From positions 36,145-100,144 of IMG/VR virus record IMGVR_UViG_3300019935_000001: 64,000 nucleotides of DNA. One strand, 5' to 3'. Origin of the DNA: a virus. Lineage: Duplodnaviria; Heunggongvirae; Uroviricota; Caudoviricetes. This document shows, piece by piece, positions 7,361-53,423 of this stretch. Positions within the stretch are counted from its first letter, which is position 1; every line of letters begins with the position of its first letter. The notes beneath the pieces were generated by a model that saw nothing but the letters and a program-made list of their open reading frames with translations, had not been told where the DNA came from and did not search any database. The position numbers were made by a program, and so were the translations under genes.

Positions 7361-7471
7361 TTTACCTGTAAAAACAGAACAAGAAAGTTGAGTCCCCTTG
7401 CTCTGTTTTTTACAATGTAAGCTCTTACTTAGCAATTAAGTAGTAACGACACACTAGAGACGGACAGAAGA

Positions 7472-8683
7472 ATGACGACCAAAGCTATCAACTGCGAAAT
7501 CTGTGGCGCATCGGTTCACACGATCAAAAAGCACCTGCGTGACGAGCACGAAGAGTGGACTCTGGAAAAGTATCAGGAAGAGTTCCCGGACGCTCCAATC
7601 TTCTCTGAGCTGGCGCTGCGGAAGATTGAAGAGGCCCGCAGTAGAACAAAAGCATCGGTCACGCAACTGGCAGAAGCTAATCCGGCTCAGCAGATCATCG
7701 AGCAGCAGAGCGTTAAGGTCGGAAAGATCGAGATGGGCAAAGCGTTCCGTCTGGGCAACACGAAAGCGACAGTCTCCCAAAAGTCTGGAAACCCGATCAT
7801 GATCACTCAGCTGCAGCGGGATAGCGTCAACTCGCCAGATATGATCCCGGAGTTCGATGATGGCTATATCTTCGACATTGAAGTCCTGAAAACGCTGTTG
7901 ATGGGCATCGAGCTGAGCATTCCTACTTACCTGTATGGTCATGCCGGTTTGGGAAAATCAACCATCTTTGAGCAGATTGCATCTGTCACCAACCGCCCGA
8001 TTCGTCGTGTGCAGCATACGGTGAATACAGAGGAATCTCACATCGTTGGTCAGTACGTTGTGAATCATGTGGAAGACCCGAAGACGGGCGAGCTGAAGGC
8101 GAAGACTGAGTTCCAGCTCGGCGATCTGCCGCTGGCGATGATGAACGGTGAGATCTTCCTTGCCGACGAGTACGACCGTGCCTATCCGTCTGTACTGTCT
8201 GTATACCAGGCAGTGCTGGAGGGTAAGCCCCTGCATATCAAGGATGCACCCGAAGAGCTGCGCGTGATCAAACCACATCCGCAATTCAGATTCGTAGCGA
8301 CCGGCAACACAAACGGCGCAGGTGACGACACCGGCTTGTATCAGGCTACGGTCGTACAGGACGCTGCGACATTTGAACGCTTTGGAATCGTTGAACGCAT
8401 CGACTACATGCCGAAGAAGCAGGAGGTTGCAATACTCCGAGCCAAGACCGGTTTGCTGGAAGAAGACGCCTCGGACATCGTGAAGTTTGCTACGCATATC
8501 CGGAAAGACGCCTTCCCGAACGAAGTGTCTCTGACCATCGGCCCGCGTGTGCTACTGAATATTGCCCGCGTCGGTATCGCCCGATTCAACACGCTGAAAG
8601 GTATCGAGGTTGCATACGCGAACCGACTGCCGGAAGCCGAGCGCCAGGCTGCTATGAACTATGCGCAGCGGATCTTCGGCTAA
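7472..8683 (+). CDS. cobS: CobS-like / MoxR-type AAA+ ATPase
   Basis: 403 aa. Walker A GHAGLGKS, Walker B IFLADEYD. N-terminal CxxC..H..H (CEICGASVHTIKKHLRDEH). ACACACTAGAGAC leader 10 nt upstream. Confidence 0.8.
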   Translation: MTTKAINCEICGASVHTIKKHLRDEHEEWTLEKYQEEFPDAPIFSELALRKIEEARSRTKASVTQLAEANPAQQIIEQQSVKVGKIEMGKAFRLGNTKATVSQKSGNPIMITQLQRDSVNSPDMIPEFDDGYIFDIEVLKTLLMGIELSIPTYLYGHAGLGKSTIFEQIASVTNRPIRRVQHTVNTEESHIVGQYVVNHVEDPKTGELKAKTEFQLGDLPLAMMNGEIFLADEYDRAYPSVLSVYQAVLEGKPLHIKDAPEELRVIKPHPQFRFVATGNTNGAGDDTGLYQATVVQDAATFERFGIVERIDYMPKKQEVAILRAKTGLLEEDASDIVKFATHIRKDAFPNEVSLTIGPRVLLNIARVGIARFNTLKGIEVAYANRLPEAERQAAMNYAQRIFG

Positions 8684-8693
8684 GGAGCGCGTC

Positions 8694-9269
8694 ATGACAC
8701 GACCACAAAATGCACCAGGCTGTTACGGCGTGGGCATTGCCTCCATGAAGAGTCCTGTCTGTAAAGAATGCGCAGCTCGTGAGGGTTGCGCAGAACGAGC
8801 TGTAGAGAACCTGCAGCTCGCTTCCGAGACGGTTGATGTAACCGATTACCTCGCAGTACATGGCCTGGCGCCAAAGCATAAGGGCGAGATGCCCCGCCAC
8901 TATCTAGCAAAGGTGAAAGTCCGGAAGGCGACTCAGCAGGAGCTGAGCATGTTCACAACTATGCCCGCAAAGGCTCGATCCATTGCAGAGTCATTGGTGA
9001 AGAAGAACATCTGTCTTCACACGAGCCTATCAACGAACCAGAACCCCTTTAACACAAACAAACCTCAGTACCTGAAGCCCGTATTCGACATGATACTGAA
9101 CTCCGGGGCGGTGTCCCGCCGCTCGATTATCGACGCGATCCGCTTATCTGGCAGCTCTGCTGCAACTCAGCGATCTCAGCTGTCAACTGCAATAGGGCTA
9201 CTGGAAGGCACCGGAGTCCTGATCAGAGATGGCGCTGAAAATTACAAGGTAGCAAACCGTGACATTTAA
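8694..9269 (+). CDS. hypothetical protein (Cys-rich N-terminus)
   Basis: ATG at 8694 preceded by AAGGAG; the track ORF starts at 8661 inside cobS. Contains CYG..CKECAAREGC. Confidence 0.5.
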   Translation: MTRPQNAPGCYGVGIASMKSPVCKECAAREGCAERAVENLQLASETVDVTDYLAVHGLAPKHKGEMPRHYLAKVKVRKATQQELSMFTTMPAKARSIAESLVKKNICLHTSLSTNQNPFNTNKPQYLKPVFDMILNSGAVSRRSIIDAIRLSGSSAATQRSQLSTAIGLLEGTGVLIRDGAENYKVANRDI

Positions 9270-12960: not shown

Positions 12961-12986
12961 GAGACAACACACACGAGAGACAAGCT

Positions 12987-13574
12987 ATGACCACAGATAT
13001 TTCAGATGCCGAGTTAGACGCTATCGCAGCCGAAGCTCTGGCGGAAGAAGGTCTTGAAGAGGTGGAAACTCCGGCTCCGAAAAGGCAAGCGAATCCAGTG
13101 AAGACGTTCATCAAGCAGAGCCAGCTGAAAGAAGACCTTACGTTCTCTCAGCATAACCTGAACGATGCAATGATGAACCAGGCTTCACTGTATTCGTTCT
13201 ATTCCTCCTGCTCAGCGAAGGCACAGCTGCAGGCTGACCGAATGAAAGTTGAAGTGGAGCGAGTAGAGGCGCAGATCGACAATGAGCTGCGCGAAGAAGC
13301 GAATCAGGATGGCAAGAAGGTAACTGAAGCGTTGCTGGCTAAGCAGATCCGCCTGGACCCACGTTATCAGAGGGCTGTTTCTAACCACAACGAAGCGAAG
13401 ATGGTTGCGTCAATGACAAAATCGACCACAGATGCCTTCGCTCAGCGCCGGGATATGCTGGTGCAGTTGGGCAAAGATCAGCGTGAAGAGCGCCTGGGTG
13501 AGTTGCGCGAACGAGCTAATCAGGAGCGGATGACAGACCTCAAAGACGCAGCAATGAGTAAAGTAGGGCGCTGA
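12987..13574 (+). CDS. hypothetical protein (predicted coiled coil)
   Basis: 195 aa. Conserved leader 5 nt upstream. Charged, helical-looking sequence. Confidence 0.55.
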   Translation: MTTDISDAELDAIAAEALAEEGLEEVETPAPKRQANPVKTFIKQSQLKEDLTFSQHNLNDAMMNQASLYSFYSSCSAKAQLQADRMKVEVERVEAQIDNELREEANQDGKKVTEALLAKQIRLDPRYQRAVSNHNEAKMVASMTKSTTDAFAQRRDMLVQLGKDQREERLGELRERANQERMTDLKDAAMSKVGR

Positions 13575-14659: not shown

Positions 14660-15619
14660 ATGACTAAATCTTTCATGCTCATTGATGGAAACAGCCTTGG
14701 TTACGCTGCAGCAAATGCTTCACCGCTGAGCGCAAACGGCCAGCCGGTTCACGCCATTTTTCATACCCTGAAAATGATCCGCTCTGCCATCAACACCTGG
14801 AGCGACGAGTACCGCACTCCGCTCATTCTGTGGGACGGCAAAGAGTATTGGCGTAAAGACCTGTACCCGGAGTACAAGCAGCGCGATGACAACAACGAGA
14901 AGGCAAAAGCTGTCAGTGAAGACTACAAGCGCCAGCGCCCGGAGCTGATCAAGGCTCTGAAGATGCTGGGGCTGACCCAGATGATCGGTCGCAACTATGA
15001 GGCTGACGATCTGGCGGGCTATATCAGCCGTTTCTTTTCGGCAAAAGGGTACAAGGTGTTGCTGGTATCGGGCGACAAAGATTGGATTCAGCTGGTTAAC
15101 AGAAACGTGACCTGGTTCGATCCTATCAGAGATCGCAAATGCACCCGCAACACCATTGAAGATCTGACAGGCTTTGCATCCCCGGCAGACTTTCTGCAGG
15201 GCAAAGCTCTGATAGGTGACACCTCGGATAACATTCCGGGTATCGACGGTATCGGCCCTAAAGCTGCACCGTTGATCATGCAAGAGTTCGGCGGCGTTGA
15301 GGGTCTATTCGAGGCTTTCAATACGCACGGCGAGCTGGACAAGAAAGCAGGCACACTGCCTGAATCTATGAGCCGCTACCGCAAGAAGATTAACGCCTTC
15401 TGTAGCTCTCAGGAACTGCGCGACCGGTACGATCTGAATATTAAGCTGATGAACCTGCTTGATGTTCAGCTATCAATGAGCGATCTGACCACCGTTCAAT
15501 CCGAACCGAACATGTTGGCATTCCGGGAGTTCTGCGAGTACCACGCTTTCGCCTCCATTCTGCGCAATATGCGTGACTGGGAGCGCCTTTTCAAAAACAC
15601 ACTAGAGACGAAATCATGA
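14660..15619 (+). CDS. 5'-3' exonuclease / flap endonuclease (Pol I N-terminal-like)
   Basis: 319 aa. LIDGNSLGY, SGDKDWIQL, and the H3TH motif LIGDTSDNIPGIDGIGPKAA. Confidence 0.85.
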   Translation: MTKSFMLIDGNSLGYAAANASPLSANGQPVHAIFHTLKMIRSAINTWSDEYRTPLILWDGKEYWRKDLYPEYKQRDDNNEKAKAVSEDYKRQRPELIKALKMLGLTQMIGRNYEADDLAGYISRFFSAKGYKVLLVSGDKDWIQLVNRNVTWFDPIRDRKCTRNTIEDLTGFASPADFLQGKALIGDTSDNIPGIDGIGPKAAPLIMQEFGGVEGLFEAFNTHGELDKKAGTLPESMSRYRKKINAFCSSQELRDRYDLNIKLMNLLDVQLSMSDLTTVQSEPNMLAFREFCEYHAFASILRNMRDWERLFKNTLETKS

Positions 15620-17070: not shown

Positions 17071-18372
17071 GGAGGGTGTTCACCGTTCTGTGTCACCGTT
17101 TTATTCACAGGTCGACATACTGGTCGATTCTGTCAGGGAAGTGGATGCTCAGCTGAGACAGCGTGAGGTTCCAGTTCTGCACTGGATGCGTCCACTTCTC
17201 TGAGGCCCTCAATATGCCCGCATAGAGCAGCTTCAGCAGGCTGTTTTCATTGGCGAAGCCACCCTTGGTTTTGGTCAGTTTCCGGAACTGACGGTGCACG
17301 GCCTCAACTGCATTGGTCGTGTAGATCGCACGCCTTACCTGTTCCGGGTACTTGAAGTACACCGACAGGTTCTCCCACTTGCTACGCCATGACTTGATGA
17401 CCAGCGGGTACTGTTTCCCCCACTTTGCCTCCAGCTCGTCCAGCGCCTGCTCTGCGGCGTTTCGCGTCGCCGCCTTGTAGACGCATTTCAGATCCACCAT
17501 AAATGCCTTCTGATTCTTGCTGGCGACGTACTTCATGGAGTTGCGGATCTGGTGAACAATACACAGCTGTACTTCTGTTTCCGGATAGATGCTTTCGATC
17601 GCTTCAGGAAAGCCTTTCAGACCATCCACAGAGGCAATAAGGATGTCTTTCAGACCTCGATTCTGCAGATCTGTCAGGACGCTGAGCCAGTAATGTGCAC
17701 CTTCATTTTCAGACAGATAGAGTCCCAGCAGCTCCTTCTTACCTTCGATGGTTAGCCCAAGAATGGTGTACACCGCTTTGGAGATGAAACGACCATTCTC
17801 TTTCACTTTGTAGTGAATGGCATCCAGCCAGACAAAAGGGTATACCGGCTCCAGATCACGCTCTTGCCAGGCTTTAAGCTCCGGCACCAGGCGATCAGTT
17901 ACGGCGTTAATCATGCCGTTGGAGACGCTCATACCGTACATTTCACAGATATGGTCACGGATGTTCTGGTAACTGCTGCCTAATGCAAACAGAGACAGTA
18001 TCTTGCCTTCCATTTCATCAGTCAGACGGGTCTGATATTTCCTGACAGTCTGGGGCTCAAATGAGCCATTGCGATCTCTCGGCGTCTCCAGCTCGAACTC
18101 GCCAGCAGCGGTTTTGACTGTTTTCTTTGAGGTGCCATTTTTCCGATTGGCGGCCGGATTTTCTGCAAGGTGCTCATCAATCTCTGCACCCAATGCGGCT
18201 TCAGTGATCTGTTTGATCAGTGGTGTCAGGAGGCCATCCTTGCCATTGAGGTTCTGTCCAGATTGCAGCGCTTTGGCAAACGCCTGAATATCGATTTCGT
18301 ACTTGTCAGACATGATGTGTCGCTCCCCGTTTCACTCAGTGTAGGAAACGACACAGAACTCTGAACACTACC
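17071..18372 (-). mobile_element. IS256-family insertion sequence (about 1.3 kb)
   Basis: Single Mutator-type transposase gene. Imperfect terminal inverted repeats: GGTGTTCACCGTTCTGTGTC (about 17075-17094) versus the reverse complement of GACACAGAACTCTGAACAC (18350-18368). No target-site duplication could be identified. Confidence 0.7.
17105..18313 (-). CDS. IS256-family (Mutator-type) transposase
   Basis: 402 aa. Typical family N-terminus (GKDGLLTPLIKQITEAALGAEIDEHL) and core (WLDAIHYKV, VDGLKGFPEAI, CIVHQIRNS). Confidence 0.9.
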   Translation of the reverse strand: MSDKYEIDIQAFAKALQSGQNLNGKDGLLTPLIKQITEAALGAEIDEHLAENPAANRKNGTSKKTVKTAAGEFELETPRDRNGSFEPQTVRKYQTRLTDEMEGKILSLFALGSSYQNIRDHICEMYGMSVSNGMINAVTDRLVPELKAWQERDLEPVYPFVWLDAIHYKVKENGRFISKAVYTILGLTIEGKKELLGLYLSENEGAHYWLSVLTDLQNRGLKDILIASVDGLKGFPEAIESIYPETEVQLCIVHQIRNSMKYVASKNQKAFMVDLKCVYKAATRNAAEQALDELEAKWGKQYPLVIKSWRSKWENLSVYFKYPEQVRRAIYTTNAVEAVHRQFRKLTKTKGGFANENSLLKLLYAGILRASEKWTHPVQNWNLTLSQLSIHFPDRIDQYVDL

Positions 18373-19872: not shown

Positions 19873-19908
19873 TTACCATTCGATTCCCCAAGGAAAAGCG
19901 TTTATTTC

Positions 19909-19944
19909 GTAAGTCAGAGCTTATAAACTTATGCTCTGACTTAC
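19909..19944. promoter_or_regulatory. extended form of the dispersed palindrome (12-bp arms)
   Basis: GTAAGTCAGAGC-N12-GCTCTGACTTAC, 25 nt upstream of sbcD. Confidence 0.5.
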
Positions 19945-19968
19945 ACACGCACACAGAGGGGACAGAAA

Positions 19969-24295: not shown

Positions 24296-24324
24296 GCGCA
24301 CCGTTGTACCAACACACATACGAG

Positions 24325-24924
24325 ATGACCATGATTATAAACGTACTGGGTTGTGACCCGGCTCTGAGTAACTTTGGCCTGGCGCAGGCACAGATCGATA
24401 CTGACACTGGCGAGATTAAGCCGCTCCGTCTGGATCTGGCGGAAACCGCCCCCTCCAAGAACAAAAAGGTTCGCAAGAACAATGACGACCTTGAGCGGTG
24501 TCGAAAACTGACCGAGGCGCTGAGAAAGAACAGTAACGGCGCTTCTGTTTGTTTTGTAGAAATGCCGGTCGGCAGTCAGTCAGCGAGAGCAATGGCCTCA
24601 TATGGTGCATGTATGGGCATTCTGTCGGGCAGTCCGCTTCCGCTGATTCAGCTGACACCAAAAGAAGTGAAAGAGGCTGCGGTCGGAAACCCGAACGCCT
24701 CAAAAGAAGAGATGATTGCCTGGGCCTATGAGAAGTACCCGGATCTGAACTGGATTAAAGGGGATAGCCGAAGCAAAAACCCTGGCAATCTCGCCAACAA
24801 GAATGAGCACCTTGCCGATGCTATCGCGACCCTGCACGCGGGCGTTAACCATGAAGACTTCCGGTCTGTTGTCTCTATCCTGCGAATGACGCAGAGCGGG
24901 GGGTTCGGTGAGTTCGCACATTAA
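24325..24924 (+). CDS. RuvC-like Holliday junction resolvase
   Basis: Start chosen at the ATG after the CAACACACATACGAG leader. Motifs VLGCDPAL (D), FVEMPV (E), NEHLADAIATLHAG (H..D), in the order of the RuvC fold. Confidence 0.6.
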   Translation: MTMIINVLGCDPALSNFGLAQAQIDTDTGEIKPLRLDLAETAPSKNKKVRKNNDDLERCRKLTEALRKNSNGASVCFVEMPVGSQSARAMASYGACMGILSGSPLPLIQLTPKEVKEAAVGNPNASKEEMIAWAYEKYPDLNWIKGDSRSKNPGNLANKNEHLADAIATLHAGVNHEDFRSVVSILRMTQSGGFGEFAH

Positions 24925-31549: not shown

Positions 31550-31564
31550 CCAACACACATAGAG

Positions 31565-32455: not shown

Positions 32456-32545
32456 TACCCCTCGGGCGACCCCGGTCGCCCTCTTTCTGAAGCATCCGAA
32501 ACCGGGTGTTTCGAGAAAGAGAAAGACCACACACTGGAGACGACC

Positions 32546-35361: not shown

Positions 35362-35387
35362 CAATACACGCATAGCAGAGATAAATC

Positions 35388-36479: not shown

Positions 36480-36683
36480 ATGAGCTATTTGGGCCTTTGC
36501 TTCATGATGCCGCTAATGATCAGCAAGATCATTAGCTACGGACGCCAGGCTGGCGGAATGACCGGAGCGCTCAAGGGCATTTTGGCTGCGATTGTTGTTC
36601 TGGCTCTTTTGCCAACGATTTACCTTGCTATGGCTATTCTGGGGAAAGCCCCCAAGGAGCCTAAACGAAAGATGCCTGTTTAG
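36480..36683 (+). CDS. small membrane protein
   Basis: 67 aa from the internal ATG (the track ORF starts at 36423 and overlaps the exonuclease gene). Two hydrophobic helices. Confidence 0.35.
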   Translation: MSYLGLCFMMPLMISKIISYGRQAGGMTGALKGILAAIVVLALLPTIYLAMAILGKAPKEPKRKMPV

Positions 36684-36828
36684 GCTTCGATCAGGTAATT
36701 GTAAAAGCAGTAATTTGGGGCGATAATGCACGGAGATTCAGATCGTTTGGTCACGGTTTGTCTCTATGTGTGTGGCGCGGCTCTTCGGGGTCGCGCCTTT
36801 TATTTGCCCGTAGCACACTGGAGACGCC

Positions 36829-37470
36829 ATGACGACCCTTCTCAAAATGACCCACCCGTCACTCCGACAGCTTAAAAAGAGCCGCCCGGAGCTAAACGGT
36901 AAAATGCTCGGGCGCGGATCTTTTACCGTCGTTTACCCGCGTGACCAGCATTCTGTCTGGAAGCTGAGCATTGACCCCTATAACTACGGCCTAGCCACCA
37001 GTGACCTGAATCGTCAATCCGAGCATTTCATTGGCGCTGTAGATAATCGTGGCATTGTCGGCTATCTGGAAGAGCTGCCGATCTACCTGTACGCCGTTGA
37101 GCGCCTGTATCCGGTTAAGGACTGCAAGATCACCAATCACCTGGTTAAGGACTTCAGCAGGCGGTATGAGGTCGGCTCATTGCTCGATTGCCCGCGCCAT
37201 CCTCGTGATGACCATGCCGGGATAGCTCAGGGTATGGCACAGAACATGAGCACGCCTGGCAGTCTGCGCCATGCAATGACCCTACTGCACCGGTACATCA
37301 TGGACAACGACTGCTCCCTTGATCTCGGGAACCGGGCTAACTTTATGCGCCACCCGGACGGCCGCCTCATTCTCAGCGATCCGATCTATCACGAGACAAT
37401 GCTGGATGAATACATGGAGATTCTGAACCCGCCTGGGGATGAACTGTTCGACGACGAGAACTGGATATGA
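36829..37470 (+). CDS. hypothetical protein with protein-kinase-like motifs
   Basis: 213 aa. G-loop-like GRGSFTVV, a following VWK Lys, catalytic-loop-like DLGNRANFM, then LSDP. GCACACTGGAGAC leader. Confidence 0.45.
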   Translation: MTTLLKMTHPSLRQLKKSRPELNGKMLGRGSFTVVYPRDQHSVWKLSIDPYNYGLATSDLNRQSEHFIGAVDNRGIVGYLEELPIYLYAVERLYPVKDCKITNHLVKDFSRRYEVGSLLDCPRHPRDDHAGIAQGMAQNMSTPGSLRHAMTLLHRYIMDNDCSLDLGNRANFMRHPDGRLILSDPIYHETMLDEYMEILNPPGDELFDDENWI

Positions 37471-37643: not shown

Positions 37644-37750
37644 TCACCACGCGCCAACCGAGATTCACCATAGTCAGATCTCTATCATGTGCAACATCTG
37701 CTGAGCAACGAAGCAAACAGTAGCACTATGCACACATAGAGGATTGAAAG

Positions 37751-38533
37751 ATGACAACCACTTCTGTTGTAGCCGAAGCCGAAACTGATGCACTGTCCGC
37801 TATCCTGGAGATTCAGGATATGGAAATCGAGGACTCTCTGGAGTCTTTGATGGCCGCCGAAATGGCTGATGACACTCTGGCTGGTCTCGTAGATGCTGAA
37901 AAGGAGCAGTCTGCAGAACCGGAACCGGAGATCGACGAAGACCAGATTCTGGCAGAGATCGAGCTGGATGATGTGAAGACACAGGCTTATGAAGAGCAGG
38001 GCGCAAAAGCTACAGACGACCTCGACCCGGAGGCTGTAACTGCAGCCGAAGCGCAGGCACCTGTCGCTGTCAAAAAGAAGCGAGCGGTAAAGCGTACCAG
38101 CACAGCGTCAATGGCCAAGTCCGAAGCTATCGTGCATAAACTTGGCGAGAGCCGCTATGAAGTCTGCGTTCTGACAAATGAGATGGCAGACATGGACGAT
38201 GACACCCGGAAGGGGGCCATTGATGACTTTATTGTCAGCATAGACAGTCTACCGAAGAAGGTGGGCGAGAAGGTACTGAACCTGCTGTGTCACGTAGCGA
38301 ACGAAGATACGCTATCCACCTATACCGACATCGCCATCCAGATGCTGAAGGATGACGGCGAGCTGACCACAGAAACACTGCGCAACAAGTACCTCGATCG
38401 ACCGTATTCCATCGGAACGTCCGGTGCTCAATCGAGCCAGATGATGTCCTTGTTGCCAGCCATGGGTCTAGCCACCCGAAGCGGGCGAACCCTCACGAAG
38501 AACCCTAATTCTGTCCTAATTGATCTGCTCTAA
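37751..38533 (+). CDS. hypothetical protein with acidic N-terminal half
   Basis: 260 aa. GCACACATAGAGGA leader. Followed by a terminator. Confidence 0.55.
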   Translation: MTTTSVVAEAETDALSAILEIQDMEIEDSLESLMAAEMADDTLAGLVDAEKEQSAEPEPEIDEDQILAEIELDDVKTQAYEEQGAKATDDLDPEAVTAAEAQAPVAVKKKRAVKRTSTASMAKSEAIVHKLGESRYEVCVLTNEMADMDDDTRKGAIDDFIVSIDSLPKKVGEKVLNLLCHVANEDTLSTYTDIAIQMLKDDGELTTETLRNKYLDRPYSIGTSGAQSSQMMSLLPAMGLATRSGRTLTKNPNSVLIDLL

Positions 38534-38540
38534 TGTGTGC

Positions 38541-38563
38541 AGCGCCCTTCGGGGCGCTTTTTT
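38541..38563 (+). terminator. intrinsic terminator
   Basis: AGCGCCC-TTCG-GGGCGCT followed by TTTTT. Confidence 0.7.
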
Positions 38564-38707
38564 ATGACCGCCAGTAACTTACTGTTTTTAATAATGTTTT
38601 TGATTTTGGTTTCAAAAAGGTTGTAGCTTAGTTGCATTAATATCGGTGCTTTCGTTACAACTTTTGAACGCTGTACAGCGCTCTGTATTGCGTTCAGAAC
38701 GCATTTG

Positions 38708-38727: not shown

Positions 38728-38825
38728 CACGCAATAAATTATTAATATAAATTTGTATGTTTTCTTTTGTTTGTACTAACTTACTTATATAATAAATTCT
38801 CTAACACACACAGAGACAGACCGAA

Positions 38826-39074
38826 ATGACCTATCGAAGTAATCCGCGACGCGCCGGGGTTGACGCTTCAGCTCGCAGACGCTCAGTTGCTAATGCGATT
38901 CGCGATGTTGTGACCAAAACATGCAGAGGCCCCGGATGCACCACCAGATCGTCTCAGACGATCTTCATTGGTGATTACTGCCCGTCCTGTCATGAGAAGC
39001 GACTGGCTGCTGAAGCGGCACGGGAAGAGCAATTGAAGCACTACTCAAGCCTTGGATTTGGAGACTTCGCATGA
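38826..39074 (+). CDS. small Cys-containing protein ending in ...GFGDFA
   Basis: 82 aa. AACACACACAGAGACAGAC leader. CRGPGC...CPSC. Confidence 0.6.
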   Translation: MTYRSNPRRAGVDASARRRSVANAIRDVVTKTCRGPGCTTRSSQTIFIGDYCPSCHEKRLAAEAAREEQLKHYSSLGFGDFA

Positions 39075-39398: not shown

Positions 39399-39869
39399 AT
39401 GCCCCTTAGTTTTCGCATAGCGAACGGAACGTCTGGCGTGTTTGGAAAGAAGCAGGCCAAAGAGCGAGCTGGAGAGATTTATCGCCAGCTGCAGACCCTG
39501 AAAGACCTGCAGAGCCGGTTAGGCAAGAGTAACGCTGAGTCCCTTGATGAGGTAACAGTGGACATGCAGGAGGAGCTAAACAACCTGTTGGAGCTTTGCC
39601 GCCCGGCTGTTCCGACTGAAGCAAAGGCTCAGTTAGTCGCCTTCGGTGAAGGCAAGAGCCTTGCCGACATCGCAGCAGAGGCAGATACAACCCGTCAGGC
39701 CGTATCACGCCGGATGCTCGGCACTGCTCAGACCCTGGCAGAATATGCAGCAATGATGGGCGTAGATCTGCCGATCACACGATTCGTTGAAGACATTCAA
39801 CCACGAGTTCCCGACTTCCTTGAGTTCATTGAAAAGCTGGAAGTCATGAAAGGAAACTGCAACAAATAA
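39399..39869 (+). CDS. hypothetical protein with sigma-70 region-4-like HTH
   Basis: ATG at 39399 after GGAGTGAAG (the track ORF starts at a TTG at 39360). HTH-like SLADIAAEADTTRQAVSRRMLGTAQTL. Confidence 0.45.
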   Translation: MPLSFRIANGTSGVFGKKQAKERAGEIYRQLQTLKDLQSRLGKSNAESLDEVTVDMQEELNNLLELCRPAVPTEAKAQLVAFGEGKSLADIAAEADTTRQAVSRRMLGTAQTLAEYAAMMGVDLPITRFVEDIQPRVPDFLEFIEKLEVMKGNCNK

Positions 39870-39887
39870 CACACTGGAGACAAACAA

Positions 39888-40382
39888 ATGACCATTTCTG
39901 CTAACGCAAAGACCGTATCCGAGAAGGACTTTTCTGAACTGGCTGGGCGCTTAGGCGTACTGATTGATGAAGCGGCTGAAAAGGGTTGCTTCGCCCAGTT
40001 CACAATGATCGCCAAGAACGATGAAGACAGTGAGGCAGTAGCTGGCGGTGCCGCTGGCCCGATAGGTCTTGCGCTGGTCGCTCAGCAGGGCGAATCCGCT
40101 TTGTCTATGGCTCCAGCTCTGTGCAGCATCCTTCCTAATGTGCTGGAGGGTGGCGAAGACGTTGCCCTGACAGTGACCATCGGAGAAGACGAGGTTTCAT
40201 CTATCACAGCGCGGGCCAACATATGGAACCTGCGCCCTCTGATGCAGCAGTGCATGAGTGAAGGCGTGTTCCCGTTTGGCAGTAAAGAAGCCTTTTACAC
40301 TGTCATCAATACAGAAGGCGTAGCGGGTGCTAAGGCGATGCTTGAACAGGCTCTGACGAAGGCTGACAAGGTGGATGCGTAA
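39888..40382 (+). CDS. hypothetical protein
   Basis: 164 aa. AACACACTGGAGAC leader. Confidence 0.6.
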   Translation: MTISANAKTVSEKDFSELAGRLGVLIDEAAEKGCFAQFTMIAKNDEDSEAVAGGAAGPIGLALVAQQGESALSMAPALCSILPNVLEGGEDVALTVTIGEDEVSSITARANIWNLRPLMQQCMSEGVFPFGSKEAFYTVINTEGVAGAKAMLEQALTKADKVDA

Positions 40383-40851: not shown

Positions 40852-40926
40852 TACTCACCTTAGTCAATTTGAGAGAATTACATTGTCAGAGCTGACTTAG
40901 CTTTTGCACACATACAGGAGCAAACT

Positions 40927-41247
40927 ATGACCACCTGCAATGTAACTTTCTCCACCGCCAGCGTGACGCTGGTTCTCAGCAATCGACCGTACAGCGGTCG
41001 TACCTCAATTATCGACATCAATGATCTCCTCGAAGCCATGTGCGAAGAGCAGGACGGGGCCAAGGCGACAGCCGGTGTCCTGGAGCGCATCACTATTGGC
41101 AACGACGGGGATCTCGTCCTCCACATGACATACGAGAGCCCAGAAGATCTGATGCTGGTCGATGTGGACGCGGACAAGATTCGGACGTTTTTAAATGAAG
41201 CCTGGGACGACGATGAAGAGTCATCTCTGGCTGCAGTGGGTTTGTGA
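40927..41247 (+). CDS. hypothetical acidic protein
   Basis: 106 aa. GCACACATACAGGAGC leader. Confidence 0.55.
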   Translation: MTTCNVTFSTASVTLVLSNRPYSGRTSIIDINDLLEAMCEEQDGAKATAGVLERITIGNDGDLVLHMTYESPEDLMLVDVDADKIRTFLNEAWDDDEESSLAAVGL

Positions 41248-42367: not shown

Positions 42368-42443
42368 TAGCCACTTCTGATCTACCTGTTGCCGATTGAG
42401 AAAATACATTCATCGGCAACAACACACATAGAGACAGAGAATT

Positions 42444-42728
42444 ATGACCGCTAAGTTGATGACCCTTCCCCCGAAGGGTCGAACCATCTCTACACCGAAA
42501 GGTGGCTGGAAGAAGCAGACGTACTACGTGGTAAACGTGTCTGTGAATCGGAACAACCCGATCTTCCGGGCGATCTTCTACTCCGGATTCCTGGAGAAGG
42601 GCGGACTGCCCGGTGCCTACGCTGCAGCATGGGCGGGCGCTTGCGATGAAACACCGATCCATGAACTTCACTTCCTGGAAGTGGTTTCTGAGATCGACAT
42701 GGGTACTGACGTGGAGGATTCACTGTGA
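42444..42728 (+). CDS. hypothetical protein
   Basis: 94 aa. AACACACATAGAGACAGAG leader. Confidence 0.6.
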   Translation: MTAKLMTLPPKGRTISTPKGGWKKQTYYVVNVSVNRNNPIFRAIFYSGFLEKGGLPGAYAAAWAGACDETPIHELHFLEVVSEIDMGTDVEDSL

Positions 42729-44637: not shown

Positions 44638-44763
44638 GTGCGGCGCTGGTGCCGACCTGACGAATGCCGAGGGGAGTCCCGAACCATCGCTTACTCCCCT
44701 TTTGAGTATTGCGACAATAGATCCCGTTGAAGCAACAACGCTATTACACACAGAGAGACGGAA

Positions 44764-45048
44764 ATGATGACCGACTTTACAGAGCTTTTTGAACGCGCAA
44801 AGACAGAGCAGACCCTGGAGATTATGGTTCGCGGCCGCTGCCGCAAAATGAAGGTGAGCTGCAATCTGTCAGATTACACTTACGCTACGCTGGCTAATTA
44901 CTATCGCGAAGACGCTTTCGCCTCTGTGCGCTGTATGCTCCAGGCCGCTGCAGATCGGCTGACCGAGATCCGTGAAGAGGCAAGCGCTGCTGCTCGCCGC
45001 GAAGCGCTTGCTAAAGATCTTGCGAAGCTGTCCGGGGCCAAATCATGA
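44764..45048 (+). CDS. hypothetical protein
   Basis: 94 aa. TTACACACAGAGAGACGG leader. Confidence 0.55.
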   Translation: MMTDFTELFERAKTEQTLEIMVRGRCRKMKVSCNLSDYTYATLANYYREDAFASVRCMLQAAADRLTEIREEASAAARREALAKDLAKLSGAKS

Positions 45049-46087: not shown

Positions 46088-46853
46088 TGTTGCTTTCTGA
46101 TACTGAGAGCAGACCTGTTGAATATGCTGCGCCATGAACGATGTAGAAAATGCCCTTTTTGACTCAGAAGTGTCCCCGGCCAGCCCCAAACTTATCATTG
46201 CTGATAGTTGGCCCTTGATATACCCCCGGAATACCCCCAGCGAGTGAAGAGTCATCGCTCGTATTTGCTCAGAAGAAGCGCCAGCTATAACCAGGTCAGC
46301 TTCAGCCTGCTGAATGTCTTCCGTTATCTGGTGAGTATCCAGATCCAGACCTGCATATGTCTTACCTCCTCTTTTTTTCATATTTGAGGAGAAGAGACAA
46401 GCGGTTGGAGTGTATAGCCGCTTCAGATGCTCCTGGTACGCCGCATGAAGCGTTGGATAGTACTCCACTGTTGAAGTCACTTCATTAGCGTGGCTAGAGC
46501 CAGTGTCGCCATAGACTTTTTAAGCATCTGTATTGTCCCTTTGATTCAACGCAGGCCGTATAGTAATTGAATCAACGATCACTTACAAAGACAGTCAGAC
46601 CAGCATCTCTGCACTACATCGACAGACTCATCTGAAAGCATCGCTGTATCGTCCGCAGAACAGCGCACAGCAAGCGCACACAGAAGATACGAGCAATCAC
46701 ACTGCTCGGCTATTCGGGCGCTCAGAACGCAATACAGAAAGCCGATCCATTCCGCTACCAAAAGCACTGCAGGATACCCAGCTGCCAGCTCTGATCAGCC
46801 TGATCCCGCTTGAGAAAATACAAGCGTCACAACGACACACAAGGAGACAAATT

Positions 46854-47174
46854 ATGACCACCTTGAGAATCCCGGTTGAAGCTGCCCGGAAGTTGCTGAT
46901 GCACTGTGAAAAGATCGGATCGGATCAGCTCGCATTTCATGCGTCAGCAACAGACGGGGCATTCTTCAGCACGGAGCACGATAGTAACCCGCTGTATCAT
47001 GTGCCGGGCTACGAACCCGGCAGCAAGCATTGGCAGCAAGAGATAGAGGCAACGTTCGGTATCGAGCCTGTTTCTATCAATGTGCCACTGCAGCTGCTGC
47101 AGCGCCAGCTCGACAACCATGACACCGGCGTGTTCTCTGTGAGGATAGATCGGGAGAACTCAATCATCACCTAA
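46854..47174 (+). CDS. hypothetical protein
   Basis: 106 aa. GACACACAAGGAGAC leader. Confidence 0.55.
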   Translation: MTTLRIPVEAARKLLMHCEKIGSDQLAFHASATDGAFFSTEHDSNPLYHVPGYEPGSKHWQQEIEATFGIEPVSINVPLQLLQRQLDNHDTGVFSVRIDRENSIIT

Positions 47175-47582
47175 CCTATAAGCAGCGCGATCTGCACCGG
47201 TTGTAAATGACCTGATTTTGTAGACCGCGCTGCAACCGAGCACTAACCCGGATACACCCGAAACCGGTACCAGGCTATCACTCCCGTATAACCCCCATAC
47301 AACCAAATTTAACCTGATCACCGAGAGATCCTCCCCCGCTGTCCATTCAAGGAAAACTCTGACCCCCAGATCAATCAGACACCACATGATTTTTCACGCT
47401 ACCAATTAAACCAAAATGCCTACCGACACGAGCATTACCCCTCTATAGGGAACCTTCATGCCCGCTATGGGAATTTACGTGGTCAAATGAGCCAAATTGT
47501 TTACCAGCACCATCAACACCAATTCCGCTCAAACCCTCATAAACGCTGACACTCCGGCCATTTCTCTCACCACCAACCATAC

Positions 47583-47736
47583 ATAGAGCACCATAGAGCC
47601 CCTATAGACACATACCATAGAGAAACACACGCCTATAGAGGCAACTATACCCATAGGGACACATACACACGCTCGCACAGGACATACGAACATAGAGGCT
47701 CACGCTCGTATAGAGGAGACATAGACCGGTATGGAG
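47583..47736 (+). repeat. array of ten same-strand ATAGAG-type hexamers in a CA-rich non-coding stretch
   Basis: Copies start at 47583, 47593, 47604, 47617, 47635, 47653, 47692, 47710, 47721 and 47731 (ATAGAG x6, ATAGAC x2, ATAGGG, ATGGAG). Confidence 0.7.
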
Positions 47737-48285
47737 ACACGCAGGGTACATGTAAGAAAAAGCGTTGGAGCCGGATCGCCAGCTTGCCTCTGTCAACCTT
47801 CAAAATATTTTGCTTATGGATAAGCCAGAGGTTCTTGAGTGGTTGACCATGGCCTGCATGCTGACAGGGTGTCCTGTTTACAGAAGGTTCCCCAGCAGAG
47901 CCAGTGTTTGAATCAAGGCTCATGGCTGCCATGTCGGTATCTGTGAGGTTATCCATGGCCAGACCAATCACCGGCGGCTTCCCTACAGGATATGACCCAT
48001 AGAGAGGATCAGGTGACCTGTGTATGGCTGGCAGCCCCTTATCGGTTATGTCCATAGTATTTTGCTCATATAAGTCAGAGCGCTGGGTAGGTTTACCAGA
48101 GGCTTGCCCATGGTTGACCTGCTCCAATTGAGCCTATGGGTCACATCCGGATCAGCTTCAGGACGCCATGATTTCGACTGGGGTAGCTGAGCAAAGCCTG
48201 ACGATGCCATGAGCCATCGCTTAGTAGACCAGCAACTCATCTGTACTATTACTGCATTAGTTAAGCACGGACAAGGACCGTAAGT

Positions 48286-48576
48286 ATGAAACAAGAAGCG
48301 ATGATTGAACTGATGACTGTGGCTGTGGCGCAAGAGCTGATGGAAGCTGCAGAGGGATTACTGGTGGAGTATGCAGAGGGTAAGGACGTTCTGCACTCTA
48401 GCCCGCGCAGTAAGATCCGTCGCCTATCGCGTGCATCCATGTTTGTAGATGCACTGCCGGGTATGGATGGGGCTGCAGTCGGACACATGATCAATGAGCT
48501 GGACGATCTGGGAGTGATCGACCGCATGGAGGGCTGTTCAAAGGAACGTGTCGCTGAAGGACTCGTGCTTAGCTAA
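48286..48576 (+). CDS. hypothetical protein
   Basis: 96-aa ORF followed by a terminator. Confidence 0.5.
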   Translation: MKQEAMIELMTVAVAQELMEAAEGLLVEYAEGKDVLHSSPRSKIRRLSRASMFVDALPGMDGAAVGHMINELDDLGVIDRMEGCSKERVAEGLVLS

Positions 48577-48606
48577 ACCAAATTCTCAGTGTGTGTGAAT
48601 ACTTTT

Positions 48607-48630
48607 GCCCGGCCATGTGTCGGGCTTTTT
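48607..48630 (+). terminator. intrinsic terminator
   Basis: GCCCG-9 nt-CGGGC followed by TTTTT. Confidence 0.55.
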
Positions 48631-48634
48631 AGTT

Positions 48635-49213: not shown

Positions 49214-49502
49214 CCAGGGAGCCGCAGGGATGCGGTTTTGCCTTCAAATCGGGTAGGTTTACCTTGGCAACACCTCCCAAGACCCTCGCTTCACTGCAGG
49301 CAAAGACAGTCTTCCTAAACGTGGCTACGTGCACGTATGAGGTCGTCACAGGATTACCTGCATCATTTGCTGTCTGACAGATCAAGTCCCGTCATATGGC
49401 CCCCTATGTGGCTTCTGAGAGGTCTTCCAGCCGCCAGATCTGATTCGCTATAGCAGTGTTGATAAAATGTAAGCTCAAACTTACAAACACATAGAAACTG
49501 CT

Positions 49503-49745
49503 ATGAACATGACCAGCATCGACCCTCGCTCTGAGGTGGCAAGATCAACCACGAATCTGGTGGCCCGGATTGACCTGTTGGATCAGGTCAGCTTCGATAC
49601 CGACGATTTCGAGACATCCAAGCTCCTGTCAGAGGGCGATAGTCCTGACCACCTGCTGTACGACCATTTCCCCTATCTGTATCGAAGCCAGGGCCATTTG
49701 GAAGATCCGGAGCGTATAGGGCGCTTGGTGAGTGTGGTCACTTGA
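49503..49745 (+). CDS. hypothetical protein
   Basis: 80 aa. GTAAGCTCAAACTTAC palindrome variant plus an AAACACATAGAAAC leader. Confidence 0.5.
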   Translation: MNMTSIDPRSEVARSTTNLVARIDLLDQVSFDTDDFETSKLLSEGDSPDHLLYDHFPYLYRSQGHLEDPERIGRLVSVVT

Positions 49746-50328: not shown

Positions 50329-50490
50329 CTACTCTGTCGTTTCCAGCGGCCCCCAGATCAGTGCCCGGTGCGCTGCTTTAATTCGCTCCTCTTTGATCCC
50401 GGTGCGCTCCGCGATCATAACCGCGTAACGATCAACAACTGTATCTGAAGCGTAAAGGAAGTGGCGAACGCCTTTTTTCAGAGTGGTCAT
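50329..50490 (-). CDS. 53-aa protein, possible small DNA-binding regulator
   Basis: Below the track cutoff. MTTLKKGVRHFLYASDTVVDRYAVMIAERTGIKEERIKAAHRALIWGPLETTE. Perfect leader CACAACACACATATAGAGACAGAAT before the ATG. Divergent from the 50731 gene. Confidence 0.45.
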   Translation of the reverse strand: MTTLKKGVRHFLYASDTVVDRYAVMIAERTGIKEERIKAAHRALIWGPLETTE

Positions 50491-50730
50491 ATTCTGTCTC
50501 TATATGTGTGTTGTGTCCGGGCACCGTGCCCCGACTGCATGTGCATATTAATAAGCTCTGACTTACTTTGCAACTCTTTTTAGATAAATAAAAAACAAAA
50601 AAATATTAAAAAAGTGTTGCGTTAAAAAATGGATTCGGTACTATACATCACATCGGCGACACGGGGAGCACATAGCCCGGCCCGATGTCAAACGTGACCA
50701 AAAAACTGAATCAGACAGAGAGTAGAAATT

Positions 50731-52118: not shown

Positions 52119-52235
52119 AGTAGGCTTGTTCCGTTCGGAACGTTCAAAACTGTACTACTCTGTCTGTAGCCACCTGAATAAGGTGGCCCATTTTTTCTGC
52201 TTTTGTGCCGTCTCAGTTGCCTGAGAAAGGCGTGA

Positions 52236-52829
52236 TCAGGGCGACTCGCCTTTCTCACCAATCAAAGGGTGCACATGTCGATAGTATGATGACCTGCTGA
52301 TCTCAAATTCACTGCACACATTGGCAATGGACTCGTCCGGGTTAGCAGAAACATACGCCGCAATTGCGCGACGTCGCTCCTTTGATAGAACTTTGGGGCG
52401 CCCACCCACGCGTCCCCTTGCTCTCGCAGATTCCAGACCAGCTTTGGTTCTTTCCTTCAATCGACTCACTTCAAGCTCTGCGAGCGCAGCGAACATATGG
52501 AAGATGAACTGGCCTGTTGGTGTGGTGGTATCGAACTTTTCCGTGGTCGATACAAAGTGAAGCTCTCTTCGTTTAAGCTCCATGGTTGTAGACACAAGAT
52601 CAATGAGCGAACGCCCCAACCGATCCAGTTTCCAAACGACGATGGCGTCCCCGGGTCTTGCAAACTCCAGCATTTCATCAAAGACCTGTCGTGACCAGGT
52701 AGAGCTGGTGCCCGTCACCTTCTCTACGAATACTTTCTCAACGCCTTCTCGCTCGAAGGCATCCAGCTGCAAAAGCAACTTCTGGTCGTCAGAAGATACC
52801 CTTCCGTACCCGAGCTTCACACGCCGCAC
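52236..52829 (-). CDS. small serine recombinase (Hin/resolvase family)
   Basis: 197 aa. GYGRVSSDDQ (catalytic Ser), VVWKLDRLGRS, GRVGGRPK, C-terminal HTH. Confidence 0.9.
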   Translation of the reverse strand: MRRVKLGYGRVSSDDQKLLLQLDAFEREGVEKVFVEKVTGTSSTWSRQVFDEMLEFARPGDAIVVWKLDRLGRSLIDLVSTTMELKRRELHFVSTTEKFDTTTPTGQFIFHMFAALAELEVSRLKERTKAGLESARARGRVGGRPKVLSKERRRAIAAYVSANPDESIANVCSEFEISRSSYYRHVHPLIGEKGESP

Positions 52830-53362
52830 CTTTTGAAGATCATCATTTGGGCCAGTTCTTCATTGGTGTATCGGCTCAGTAGCAGGTCCGTTGCGGCCGT
52901 TGTTGTTTGGGCAGTGCCTGTCTCTATCATTTTGAGGCTCAAATCGTGAAATAAAATGGTTGTCTCGGGATGCCAGGTAAAGGATCGCAGAGCTTTGGTG
53001 ATGCCGCTCCTCATCTCGATCAATGCAAAAGACATTACCAGGCGTTCACCCGGTTCTGGCTCTTCGATGCTTCTATCGCTGTCTGGTATCCGCTTCGGGT
53101 CGAATGGGCAACAGAACCATACCGAGCGTCCCTTTCTGTCCCGAAACTGAAACATGATGATCATAGCGCCGCCCCGAATCAACAGTCCGATGTCTACCGG
53201 GCTTTCGCGAAATGTACGAATCTCTGCTGGTGTCAGATCAGGAAGTCCTGCAACAAACAGGTTGTTTCCGTGATCCAGGAGGTGCAGCTGGGAGAACTCT
53301 GGCAATGGCGGGATGATGCCGGGCCACTTCTTACCCAGCTCTATCTTGGTGTAGTCGTCCAT
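52817..53362 (-). CDS. hypothetical protein co-transcribed with the recombinase
   Basis: 181 aa. Leader ACAGACAGAGACAGAGAAAACACC before the ATG. 13-nt overlap with the recombinase start. Confidence 0.55.
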   Translation of the reverse strand: MDDYTKIELGKKWPGIIPPLPEFSQLHLLDHGNNLFVAGLPDLTPAEIRTFRESPVDIGLLIRGGAMIIMFQFRDRKGRSVWFCCPFDPKRIPDSDRSIEEPEPGERLVMSFALIEMRSGITKALRSFTWHPETTILFHDLSLKMIETGTAQTTTAATDLLLSRYTNEELAQMMIFKRCGV

Positions 53363-53423
53363 GGTGTTTTCTCTGTCTCTGTCTGTACTACAGCCTGATT
53401 AGTCTCAGGCTTGACTGTGCACT

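Follow-up and report, generated by a model that had tools for sequence, protein, structure and literature searches.

A shared CA-rich leader before about 20 genes of a marine phage-plasmid, and a candidate small RNA of the same element that may pair with it

Why should about 20 genes, dispersed along one viral DNA molecule, begin with nearly the same short leader? The question has been raised by a stretch of 64,000 nucleotides (nt; called the window in the following) from the IMG/VR virus record IMGVR_UViG_3300019935_000001 (positions 36,145 to 100,144), which belongs to a marine phage-plasmid that is uncultured, of the SSU5/pHCM2 type and distant from SSU5. An initial annotation had pointed out a CA-rich tract followed by RGAGAC shortly before many start codons and had interpreted it as a signal for translation initiation. 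This shared leader has been borne out, being enriched, linked to starts and present at about 20 genes. According to the reading that we moderately favour, it combines a CA/ACA-type enhancer with a weak Shine-Dalgarno (SD) sequence and is, in addition, the common target of a small RNA (sRNA) encoded by the element itself.

Within the window, ACAC-N0-12-RGAGAC gives 25 overlapping matches, compared with 3.1 ± 1.9 in 100 dinucleotide-preserving shuffles, none of which has reached 25. The strict two-block form, CACAC-N1-4-RGAGAC, has been located at 16 sites, 13 of which end 3–12 nt before a start in the called gene set; together with two further sites preceding ATG 38826 and GTG 36754 (minus strand), 15 of the 16 have this position before a start codon. 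All such counts carry the caveat that the gene starts come from a home-made picker of open reading frames (ORFs) based on codon usage. Taken alone, ACACAC lies no more than 30 nt upstream of starts in 14 of 37 copies, an approximately 20-fold concentration in a zone of less than 2% of the sequence, and RGAGAC is placed 3–12 nt before a start in 18 of 60 copies; the canonical AGGAG occupies this position in 4 cases only. CACAC and RGAGAY are tightly associated with each other (p = 6.6e-6). We have also checked whether the motif is equally common away from starts, which is not so, as the copies concentrate before them.

Inspection of the 20 sites that had been listed before (Table 1) has yielded twelve strict copies (7448, 12967, 15596, 27408, 32528, 36814, 38803, 39868, 42421, 44744, 46834 and, on the minus strand, 50490) and seven clear variants (19943 with AGAGGGGAC, 24309 with CGAGAT, 29705 with CCACAC..AGAGAA, 31552 with AGAGAT, 37730 with AGAGGA, 40906 with CAGGAG and 49485 with AAACAC..AGAAAC), while the site at 53362 (minus strand) is weak and doubtful, as CACAC is absent from it. 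One variant copy before 35388 had been overlooked. Moreover, the motif is fuller than first reported, (A)ACACAC-W-N-RGAGAC-N4-10-AUG-ACC. It extends 3′ into AUG-ACN, mostly ACC, and accordingly a Met-Thr start has been observed in 13 of 17 CACAC genes versus 8 of 61 others (Fisher p = 1.3e-6). In an alignment of the listed sites, information content is found only from about −8 to +5 around RGAGAC (about 14 nt), and nothing is conserved farther upstream. Regarding the purine block, a poor match to the anti-SD had been noted correctly: with the canonical 3′-AUUCCUCC, the standard in Vibrionaceae, AGAGAC offers only GAG and GGAGAC only GGAG. Among the start codons that the leader had served to refine, TTG 27429 of NrdA agrees with the public gene call (a 746-aa product) and ATG 31574 agrees with the MKKI start of its ortholog. 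The start at 24325 proposed for the ruvC-like gene is probably two codons off; ATG 24331 (MIINVLG) fits better, with orthologs beginning MIIN or MIVN and a GAG-to-ATG spacing of 6 nt.

At which level would such a leader act? The CA tract lies 11–26 nt upstream of about 20 starts, on the mRNA strand only, and the distance from leader to start is 4–10 nt, whereas promoter-like boxes are 0 to about 60 nt away. Of 48 genes preceded by a gap of over 5 nt, 16 have the motif, compared with 1 of 29 tightly coupled genes. The sole coupled gene is recA, whose copy occupies the last codons of the exonuclease gene (14660–15619), which overlaps the next start by 4 nt; the location of this copy inside upstream coding sequence, already stated in the initial annotation, has been confirmed. 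Gaps to the upstream gene amount to −4 nt for the start at 15616, 18 nt for 39888 and 24 nt for 31574, and the copies lying 18 and 24 nt past the preceding stop codon leave no room for a promoter. Translation initiation regions (TIRs) with the motif are also predicted to be more open than other leaders, with a mean unpaired probability of 0.64 vs 0.50 (p = 3e-5) and a minimum free energy of −10.2 vs −15.2 kcal/mol (p = 0.004). The start-tied spacing, the copies within operons and the open leaders argue for an RNA-level role in translation initiation, and with strand specificity and the lack of upstream conservation they favour a translation signal over a promoter, as had been proposed. That the motif acts at the translation level is highly probable. 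The proposed analogy to CA-repeat enhancers likewise agrees with published work, in which ACA/CA tracts adjoining the SD are proven translation enhancers and such C/A-rich (ACA) enhancers are silenced by the GU-rich seed of the sRNA GcvB (Yang, Figueroa-Bossi & Bossi 2014; PMC3879156).

Relatives of the element have been found through searches with RecA and the DnaQ-like exonuclease; they are syntenic and marine metagenomic, with orthologous proteins about 50–72% identical to those of the window and a G+C content of 41–46%. Four further lineages (L095/L108, L097/L104, L101 and L103) carry the leader, the CA tract being usually followed by AGAG, and CACAC occurs at −35 to −8 in 11–37% of the called genes across the window and these four lineages (29% of plus-strand genes in the window). 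The leader-bearing orthologs include cobS, sbcD, nrdB, thyA and genes 36829, 37751 and 38826. The tract has been kept before sbcD in L095 and L097, before nrdB in L095, L097 and L103, before thyA in L103, L104 and L108, and before the orthologs of 37751 in L101, L103 and L104, and the intergenic DNA around the conserved leaders is not conserved between lineages. In distant relatives, CACAC in the same interval has been counted in 0 of 29 genes of L107, 0 of 32 of L109 and 1 of 58 of SSU5, which lacks the leader motif and uses AAGGAG-type SDs. The leader has thus been kept through divergence in the motif lineages and not in L107, L109, SSU5 or host loci, which marks it as a clade-specific trait. 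The two-block motif has been found at none of 62 IMG/VR CobS loci (at most about 50% identical), and the motif at none of 29 loci from a GTDB genome scan with NrdB (mostly host chromosomes). A host-wide TIR habit has been rejected on a small sample, ACACAC not standing before starts in Photobacterium chromosomal loci. SSU5 (50–100 kb, L001) has a repeated intergenic inverted repeat of its own, CAAGAAAACAA-NN-TTGTTTA, shortly before the SD of many small genes, and many of its leaders end in ...AAACAC-ATG; this repeat is a different solution to coordinating dispersed genes.

One strict copy of the motif, on the minus strand at 36760–36773, has no credible gene behind it, only an ORF of 24 codons. 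On the plus strand, the same place holds a candidate gene for an anti-leader sRNA of about 71 nt. A first stem-loop (SL1, 36739–36760) of 8 bp with the hexaloop UUGGUC is followed by the single-stranded seed UCUCUAUGUGUGU (36761–36773) and a strong intrinsic terminator hairpin (36774–36797), then UUUUAUUU; the predicted fold has a z-score of −4.65. In its single-stranded part, GUCUCUAUGUGUGU, the candidate RNA is exactly antisense to the consensus of the leaders, and 36747–36773 is the exact reverse complement of ACACACAUAGAGACAAACCGUGACC, a full leader with spacer, start codon and ACC. Leader 36814, that of gene 36829, begins 9 nt past the U-tail of the terminator. The 24-codon ORF (MTKRSESPCIIAPNYCFYNYLIEA; 36680–36754, minus strand, GTG start) has no counterpart with a usable start in L101 and L108, and the peptides of L103 and L104 are dissimilar. 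This lack of conservation speaks against both a small gene and a type I toxin, and the ORF is probably a by-product of the sRNA sequence rather than a gene; a type I toxin-antitoxin system has been set aside, with no conserved small toxin ORF found opposite the sRNA.

The sRNA gene is found in the same intergenic position, directly upstream of the gene-36829 ortholog, in all five motif lineages (window, L101, L108, L103 and L104). Each copy has a promoter of the form TTGNNN-N17-(G/A)ATAAT (TTGCTT-N17-GATAAT in L101 and L108, TTGATT-N17-AATAAT in L103, TTGCAA-N17-GATAAT in L104), a hexaloop UU(A/G)GUC (heptaloop CUUGUCA in L104) and a seed (C/U)CUCU-N0-2-UGUGUGUG, whereas the terminators, with U-tails of 4–6 U, differ in sequence between lineages. 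An own promoter, an intergenic site, a terminator with U-tail and a covarying structure are the features of a trans-acting, terminator-ended (Hfq-type) sRNA gene, and all have been observed. A covariance model (R1), built from three copies with L103 and L104 left out, matches its training copies at 1e-16 to 5e-21 and the two omitted lineages at 9e-7 and 2e-6, with one strong match per genome and none in SSU5, L107 or L109. As the MAFFT alignment is not structure-consistent, the model-based one has been used; in this model-fitted alignment of five sequences 94.7% of cells are paired, with double-sided changes in 11 of 16 pairs; SL1 is 100% paired, with such changes in 6 of its 8 pairs. None of 500 shuffles has reached the observed values, and slid controls collapse. 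The plus strand folds far better than the minus strand in 4 of 5 lineages, and G-U pairs point to the plus strand as the folding strand. An Rfam scan of the window has given no family at gathering score, with only the chance-level BTnc201 and ncS025 at the sRNA locus at E ≤ 10 and no membership in the GcvB covariance model (RF00022); no tRNAs have been found in the window. Attempts to widen the family have returned only the L101 lineage among 80 loci of a JGI metagenome scan with an exonuclease profile, which also gave a weak GU-rich terminator element in L111/L112, and four chance-like matches in an IMG/VR pattern scan. We are largely convinced that the sRNA gene is real.

How well the putative seed fits the leaders has been evaluated across the window. 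Nine of ten plus-strand sites with a perfect complement of at least 9 nt to the seed region are located in TIRs, and the duplex energy with a 19-nt seed puts 18 of 78 TIRs under the 0.1 percentile of 3000 random windows, where about 0.08 would be expected. These outliers comprise cobS, recA, sbcD, ruvC, nrdA, thyA, the SPFH gene and eleven genes of unknown function; the nrdB TIR is just outside the cut, at the 1st percentile. A GU-rich seed predicted to target the CA tract has thereby been found in silico. Since the RNA is itself the antisense of the consensus, this complementarity is in part a circular argument; the independent evidence consists of the conservation of the sRNA gene together with a hint of co-variation at the junction. 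In the window, the seed UCUAUGUG goes with TIRs CACAUAGA; in L103 and L108, UCUUGUG goes with CACAAGAG, and in L104, UCUGUGUG with CACACAGA. L107 has a divergent GU-rich, terminator-linked element whose seed UGUGUUAGCG matches its own shorter leaders CGCUAACACAG (TIRs CGCUAACACA). Seed and TIRs of the same lineage match best in the window, L103 and L107, and nearly best in the others. The hexaloop UU(A/G)GUC of SL1 may pair with AUGAC(C/U)AA, in just 2–3 genes per lineage, which are too few to use.

If the leader and the RNA belong together, the following mechanism can be proposed. The leader would form the common TIR of about 20 phage-plasmid genes, which, coming after an intergenic gap, have to attract ribosomes independently; the majority serve DNA replication, recombination and nucleotide metabolism (cobS, recA, sbcD, ruvC, nrdA, nrdB, thyA), accompanied by small genes of unknown function. 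The unstructured CA/ACA tract would enhance translation and so offset a weak SD with a GAG or GGAG core, and a short A-rich spacer would then lead to AUG-ACC. The trans-acting RNA of about 71 nt, of which the seed and the 3′ half of SL1 are antisense to the consensus, would pair with the dispersed leaders and mask enhancer and SD, in the best targets the start codon as well, blocking initiation on the whole set at once. This could happen as silencing in the plasmid state or as a late shut-off. The uniform bases outside the SD (the AC in GAGAC, the AUAG junction and the codon ACC) would be best explained by a shared sRNA target, and the sRNA would be a second, possibly the main, reason for the uniformity of the leaders. 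It is somewhat more likely than not that the sRNA regulates these leaders. A stronger version, in which the clade encodes a master anti-TIR sRNA that co-evolves with about 20 TIRs and gates the early programme, the consensus including Met-Thr being shaped by RNA pairing and not by the ribosome, appears to us evenly balanced. An attenuating leader for the gene downstream is another role that the sRNA could have, and the host GcvB could make use of the same CA tracts.

Several observations weigh against this reading. Promoter use, RNA ends and regulation are all things that we infer, and for the CA tract by itself an enhancer could suffice, with no sRNA involved. A TIR copied in inverted orientation would always appear as a perfect antisense, and in the window the minus strand indeed amounts to a complete TIR, with GTG-ACC as its start and the 24-codon ORF behind it. 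The U-tail of the window terminator (UUUUAUUU) is short, in L104 the two strands fold equally well, and the family comprises only five lineages, with a model-fitted covariation alignment and rough E-values. Matching of seed and TIRs is not best within the own lineage in L101, L104 and L108. Finally, several leader copies lie just downstream of promoter-like boxes, so that a role of the CA tract at the transcript 5′ end is possible.

Among the rival readings one stands out, the others being weaker. It holds that the leaders are only strong, host-adapted TIRs (CA/ACA enhancer, weak SD, favourable AUG-ACC start) with no RNA regulator, and the antisense element at 36.7 kb would then be a terminator-bearing 3′ untranslated region (3′UTR), an attenuating leader or an sRNA with other targets. 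That ACA enhancers work without an sRNA (PMC3879156) agrees with it, as do the openness of the motif TIRs, the conservation of the CA tract across lineages while the SD-like part drifts, and a cross-lineage seed specificity that is just partial. It leaves unexplained, however, why AC of GAGAC, the AUAG junction and ACC should be uniform within the genome, why a covarying, promoter-driven and terminator-ended antisense RNA should accompany the motif, at one conserved position, in every lineage that has it and be missing from the motif-less SSU5 and L109, and why the divergent seed of L107 should match the divergent leaders of L107. We regard this explanation as unlikely, though it deserves to be kept in view.

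A DNA-level signal, i.e., a promoter or transcription start for a host or phage RNA polymerase (RNAP) or an operator of a DNA-binding regulator, is very improbable. Many copies do lie 5–40 nt downstream of promoter-like boxes (TAAGTCAG..CTGACTTA palindromes, TTGAGAAAAT, TATAAT), and the ATAGAG cluster at 47.55–47.75 kb demonstrates that the word can form arrays resembling binding sites. The spacing, however, is fixed to the start codon and not to the upstream boxes, copies occur within operons and in one coding 3′ end, nothing is conserved from −12 to −34, and the strict strand bias follows gene direction. The motif loosely recalls the −9 to +5 core of SP6/K11-type promoters. Promoters of single-subunit (T7/SP6-type) RNAPs are conserved over about 23 bp, from −17 to +6; here the conservation covers about 14 nt, and no RNAP is encoded by the large ORFs scanned, with about 39 kb of the replicon lying outside the window.

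Equally slight is the probability that the leader is a protein site on many mRNAs, recognized by a RegA-like repressor, a RegB-like endoribonuclease cutting SD regions or an ACA-specific toxin of the MazF type. A uniform TIR on a coherent early-type gene set resembles the T4 RegA/RegB regulons, and the CA tract contains several ACA triplets, but no candidate protein has been identified in the window, a conserved, ready-made RNA partner exists, and a protein site would be compatible with the sRNA reading rather than exclude it. Readings of the CA tract as a CsrA, Hfq-Crc or MazF site have been set aside, with GGA missing in most copies and AAnAAnAA not being the pattern seen. Hardly credible, finally, is a recombination linker, i.e., the boundary of a mobile regulatory cassette like the PeSL elements of T4-type phages, spread with shuffled genes and not selected for expression: many motif genes are small accessory ORFs in the mosaic region 36–50 kb and the copies are nearly identical over 14–25 nt, but the motif also precedes core syntenic genes (cobS, sbcD, nrdAB, thyA) at about 50–72% protein identity with unconserved flanking DNA, and 14 nt are very short for homologous recombination.

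Table 1. Leader copies, the candidate sRNA gene and associated features of the window. Energies are predicted for the duplex of the leader with the 19-nt sRNA seed.
Feature	Position	Strand	Gene or remark	Duplex (kcal/mol)
Leader copy GACACACTAGAGAC, N10, ATG-ACG	7448–7474	+	cobS-like AAA ATPase	−24.2
Leader copy ACACACACGAGAGAC, N5, ATG-ACC	12967–12989	+	195-aa protein, no Pfam match	−25.6
Leader copy AACACACTAGAGAC, N6, ATG	15596–15618	+	RecA-like; inside 3′ coding end of 5′-3′ exonuclease gene 14660–15619, gap −4	−22.0
Variant leader ACACACGCACACAGAGGGGAC, N5, ATG-ACC-AAA	19943–19971	+	SbcD-like	−21.8
Variant leader AACACACATACGAGAT-GACC-ATG	24311–24333	+	ruvC-like, likely start ATG 24331	−22.0
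Leader copy CACACACATGGGAGAC, N5, TTG-ACC	27408–27431	+	NrdA, start TTG 27429	−25.9
Variant leader CCACACTAGAGAA, N5, ATG-ACC-AAC	29705–29725	+	NrdB	−17.7
Leader copy AACACACATAGAGAT-GACCACC-ATG	31552–31576	+	SPFH/Band-7 protein, start ATG 31574; 13-nt perfect sRNA complement	−25.8
Leader copy CACACACTGGAGAC-GACC-ATG	32528–32548	+	ThyA	−23.2
Extra variant ACACGCATAGCAGAGAT, N5, ATG-ACC	35366–35390	+	not among the initially listed sites	−22.8
Sigma-70-type promoter TTGTAA, N17, GATAAT	36699–36727	+		
Candidate anti-leader sRNA, about 71 nt	36735–36805	+	promoter, fold, covariation, terminator	
Leader copy CACACTGGAGAC, N3, ATG-ACG-ACC	36814–36831	+	213-aa protein, L104 ortholog 50% identical	−21.5
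Variant leader GCACACATAGAGGA, N7, ATG-ACA-ACC	37730–37753	+	11-nt perfect sRNA complement	−21.1
Second antisense-like module CUGCUCUAAUGUGUG, then terminator 38541–38558	38522–38566	+	weak R1 match, E about 1	
Leader copy AACACACACAGAGAC, N8, ATG-ACC	38803–38828	+	best predicted sRNA target	−29.1
Leader copy AACACACTGGAGAC, N6, ATG-ACC	39868–39890	+	18 nt past upstream gene	−24.5
Variant leader GCACACATACAGGAGC, N6, ATG-ACC	40906–40929	+		−20.3
Leader copy AACACACATAGAGACA, N8, ATG-ACC	42421–42446	+	15-nt perfect sRNA complement	−27.0
Leader copy TTACACACAGAGAGAC, N4, ATG-ATG-ACC	44744–44769	+		−22.0
Leader copy GACACACAAGGAGAC, N5, ATG-ACC	46834–46856	+		−24.0
Third antisense-like module AUUCUCAGUGUGUGU, then terminator 48607–48625	48575–48633	+		
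Weak variant AAACACATAGAAAC, N4, ATG-AAC-ATG-ACC	49485–49511	+		
Leader copy ACACAACACACATATAGAGAC, N5, ATG-ACC	50488–50516	−	53-aa ORF	−25.5
Doubtful copy ACAGACAGAGACAGAGAAAACACC-ATG	53360–53386	−	GAGAC present, CACAC tract absent; not an outlier	−15.8
Palindromic boxes	near 5150, 12898, 13609, 19905–19945, 27355, 30895, 35340, 38710, 40885, 50562 (−), 52095, 59202, 62912			

Besides the sRNA gene, anti-leader GU tracts (CUCUAAUGUGUG and UCUCAGUGUGUGU) have been observed directly before intrinsic terminators at gene 3′ ends, in the second and third modules of Table 1 and also in L107 (8370–8426) and L103 (13062–13124). The second module overlaps the stop codon of gene 37751–38533, with comparable modules behind its ortholog in L107 and L103. 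These GU-tract modules may be 3′UTR-derived sRNA siblings or else cis elements pairing with leaders; whether the two window modules are members of the leader/sRNA system is uncertain. A further cluster of nine YATAGR repeats, six of them ATAGAG, within 200 nt (47551–47750, plus strand) is the sole one of its kind in the window and sits in a non-coding, C/A-rich stretch of about 1 kb (47.2–48.2 kb). It could represent replication-origin iterons or, if transcribed, a sponge with many CAUAGAG seed matches for the sRNA.

Upstream of the leaders, two classes of boxes have been noticed. About 14 palindromic boxes, TAAGTCAG-N2-3-CTGACTTA(T) or the half-palindrome TAAGTCAGAnCTTACTTAT, are intergenic and located 20–70 nt upstream of operon-first genes; the leader of sbcD comes directly after such a palindrome (GTCAGAGC..GCTCTGAC). 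The box has been found in the relatives too, L107 included, and is probably a promoter-plus-operator for a repressor or activator of the element. The second promoter-like class, CTGATC...TTGAGAAAATACA (or TTGATAAAATG), lies in a small hairpin just upstream of leaders (42377–42410, 46791–46825 and 49440–49470), and relatives carry TTGAGATAAT at equivalent places. A GATAAT −10 box is common to the CTGATC class and the sRNA promoter.

The assignment of the element rests on ParA/ParB partition genes and on a gene order that parallels SSU5. The window encodes a CobT-like VWA protein, a CobS-like AAA ATPase, a DnaE-type polymerase, a gp32-like SSB, a 5′-3′ exonuclease, RecA, SbcD/SbcC, NrdA/NrdB, an SPFH protein and ThyA, and the syntenic series CobT-CobS-DnaE-SSB-exonuclease-RecA-SbcDC-NrdAB-ThyA is that of SSU5-type phage-plasmids. 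DNA similarity to SSU5 is about 68% and restricted to nrdAB, no near match to the window has been obtained among INPHARED phages or PLSDB plasmids, and searches for distant relatives with 35.8–39.9 kb of the window have given nothing useful. The same proteins are present on a metagenome contig of 102,745 bp in ENA (ERZ27248054:k141_120701). Between the recA block and sbcD, an IS256-family (Mutator-type) transposase has been inserted (17105–18313, minus strand), at which the contig of a second assembly of the same element breaks. The transposase is at least 90% identical to proteins in several Photobacterium species, and this near-identical copy together with the G+C content of 52% points to a host among the Vibrionaceae, probably Photobacterium. 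Farther downstream (53593–56185, plus strand), a gene for an AAA/SMC-type ATPase comes after that for a DndB-like protein (PF14072), and the two may be a defence- or DNA-modification-associated pair of the phage-plasmid. A tetranucleotide-like repeat, AGTTAGTTGGTTAGTTAGTTAGTTAGTT, at about 58271–58300 stands directly before the SD of a KfrA_N-like coiled-coil gene (57296–58270, minus strand) and could be centromere-like, an operator or a slippage-prone tract.

How would the proposed system relate to known ones? The GU-rich seed of GcvB reportedly silences targets with C/A-rich enhancers (Sharma et al. 2007; Yang, Figueroa-Bossi & Bossi 2014). The window shares with it a CA/ACA tract just upstream of the SD in many mRNAs and, on the side of the candidate RNA, multiple targets, a single-stranded GU-rich seed beside the terminator and a predicted block of initiation. 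In contrast to GcvB, the candidate has no Rfam match and another architecture, is encoded by a phage-plasmid and would be aimed at the element's own genes; its seed covers the SD as well, in the window also spacer and start codon, with up to 15–25 nt of near-perfect pairing compared with the short, imperfect pairings of GcvB, and its targets are DNA-metabolism genes instead of amino-acid transporters. Antisense immunity RNAs of temperate phages are exemplified by c4 of P1 and P7 (P1 being a phage-plasmid too) and sar of P22. As in these, a phage-encoded small RNA is predicted to pair with the ribosome-binding region of phage mRNA and thereby keep functions off, but c4 and sar serve one operon via adjacent sites, whereas the candidate matches about 18–20 dispersed TIRs over at least 45 kb. 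In T4, RegA is a translational repressor and RegB an endonuclease that cuts GGAG in early SD regions. The global post-transcriptional control of a phage gene class through a shared TIR feature, as proposed here, would be alike; the T4 effectors are proteins, whereas the candidate effector of the window is an RNA, and the shared sequence is longer and more specific. CA repeats downstream of or around the start codon are reported to stimulate translation largely independently of position (Martin-Farmer & Janssen 1999, cited in PMC3879156), unlike the tract described here, which is nearly fixed at 1–4 nt 5′ of the purine block and is natural and genome-wide, not engineered. With hok/sok, the locus has in common a small RNA antisense to the TIR of a tiny ORF on a plasmid-like element, but this ORF is neither conserved nor hydrophobic and has no evident minus-strand promoter.

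In temperate phages and phage-plasmids, control of the lytic genes is attributed mainly to repressors and antiterminators, and the known phage antisense RNAs act, to our knowledge, on single operons. If the favoured reading is true, one sRNA that fits the TIR consensus of a whole genome would represent the RNA equivalent of T4 RegA/RegB, and the genes concerned would constitute a natural regulon defined by a designed-looking common leader. Uniform ribosome-binding regions could then reflect co-evolution with a riboregulator and not ribosome preference, which would matter for start-site prediction and for the reading of odd SD motifs in metagenomic viruses. Leader (14–25 nt) and RNA (71 nt) would also make a compact, portable pair and a possible orthogonal translational switch. 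Should the sRNA reading be wrong, the motif would still provide a clean natural dataset for CA/ACA enhancers with weak SDs in Vibrionaceae, and whichever reading holds, the leader already corrects several start codons.

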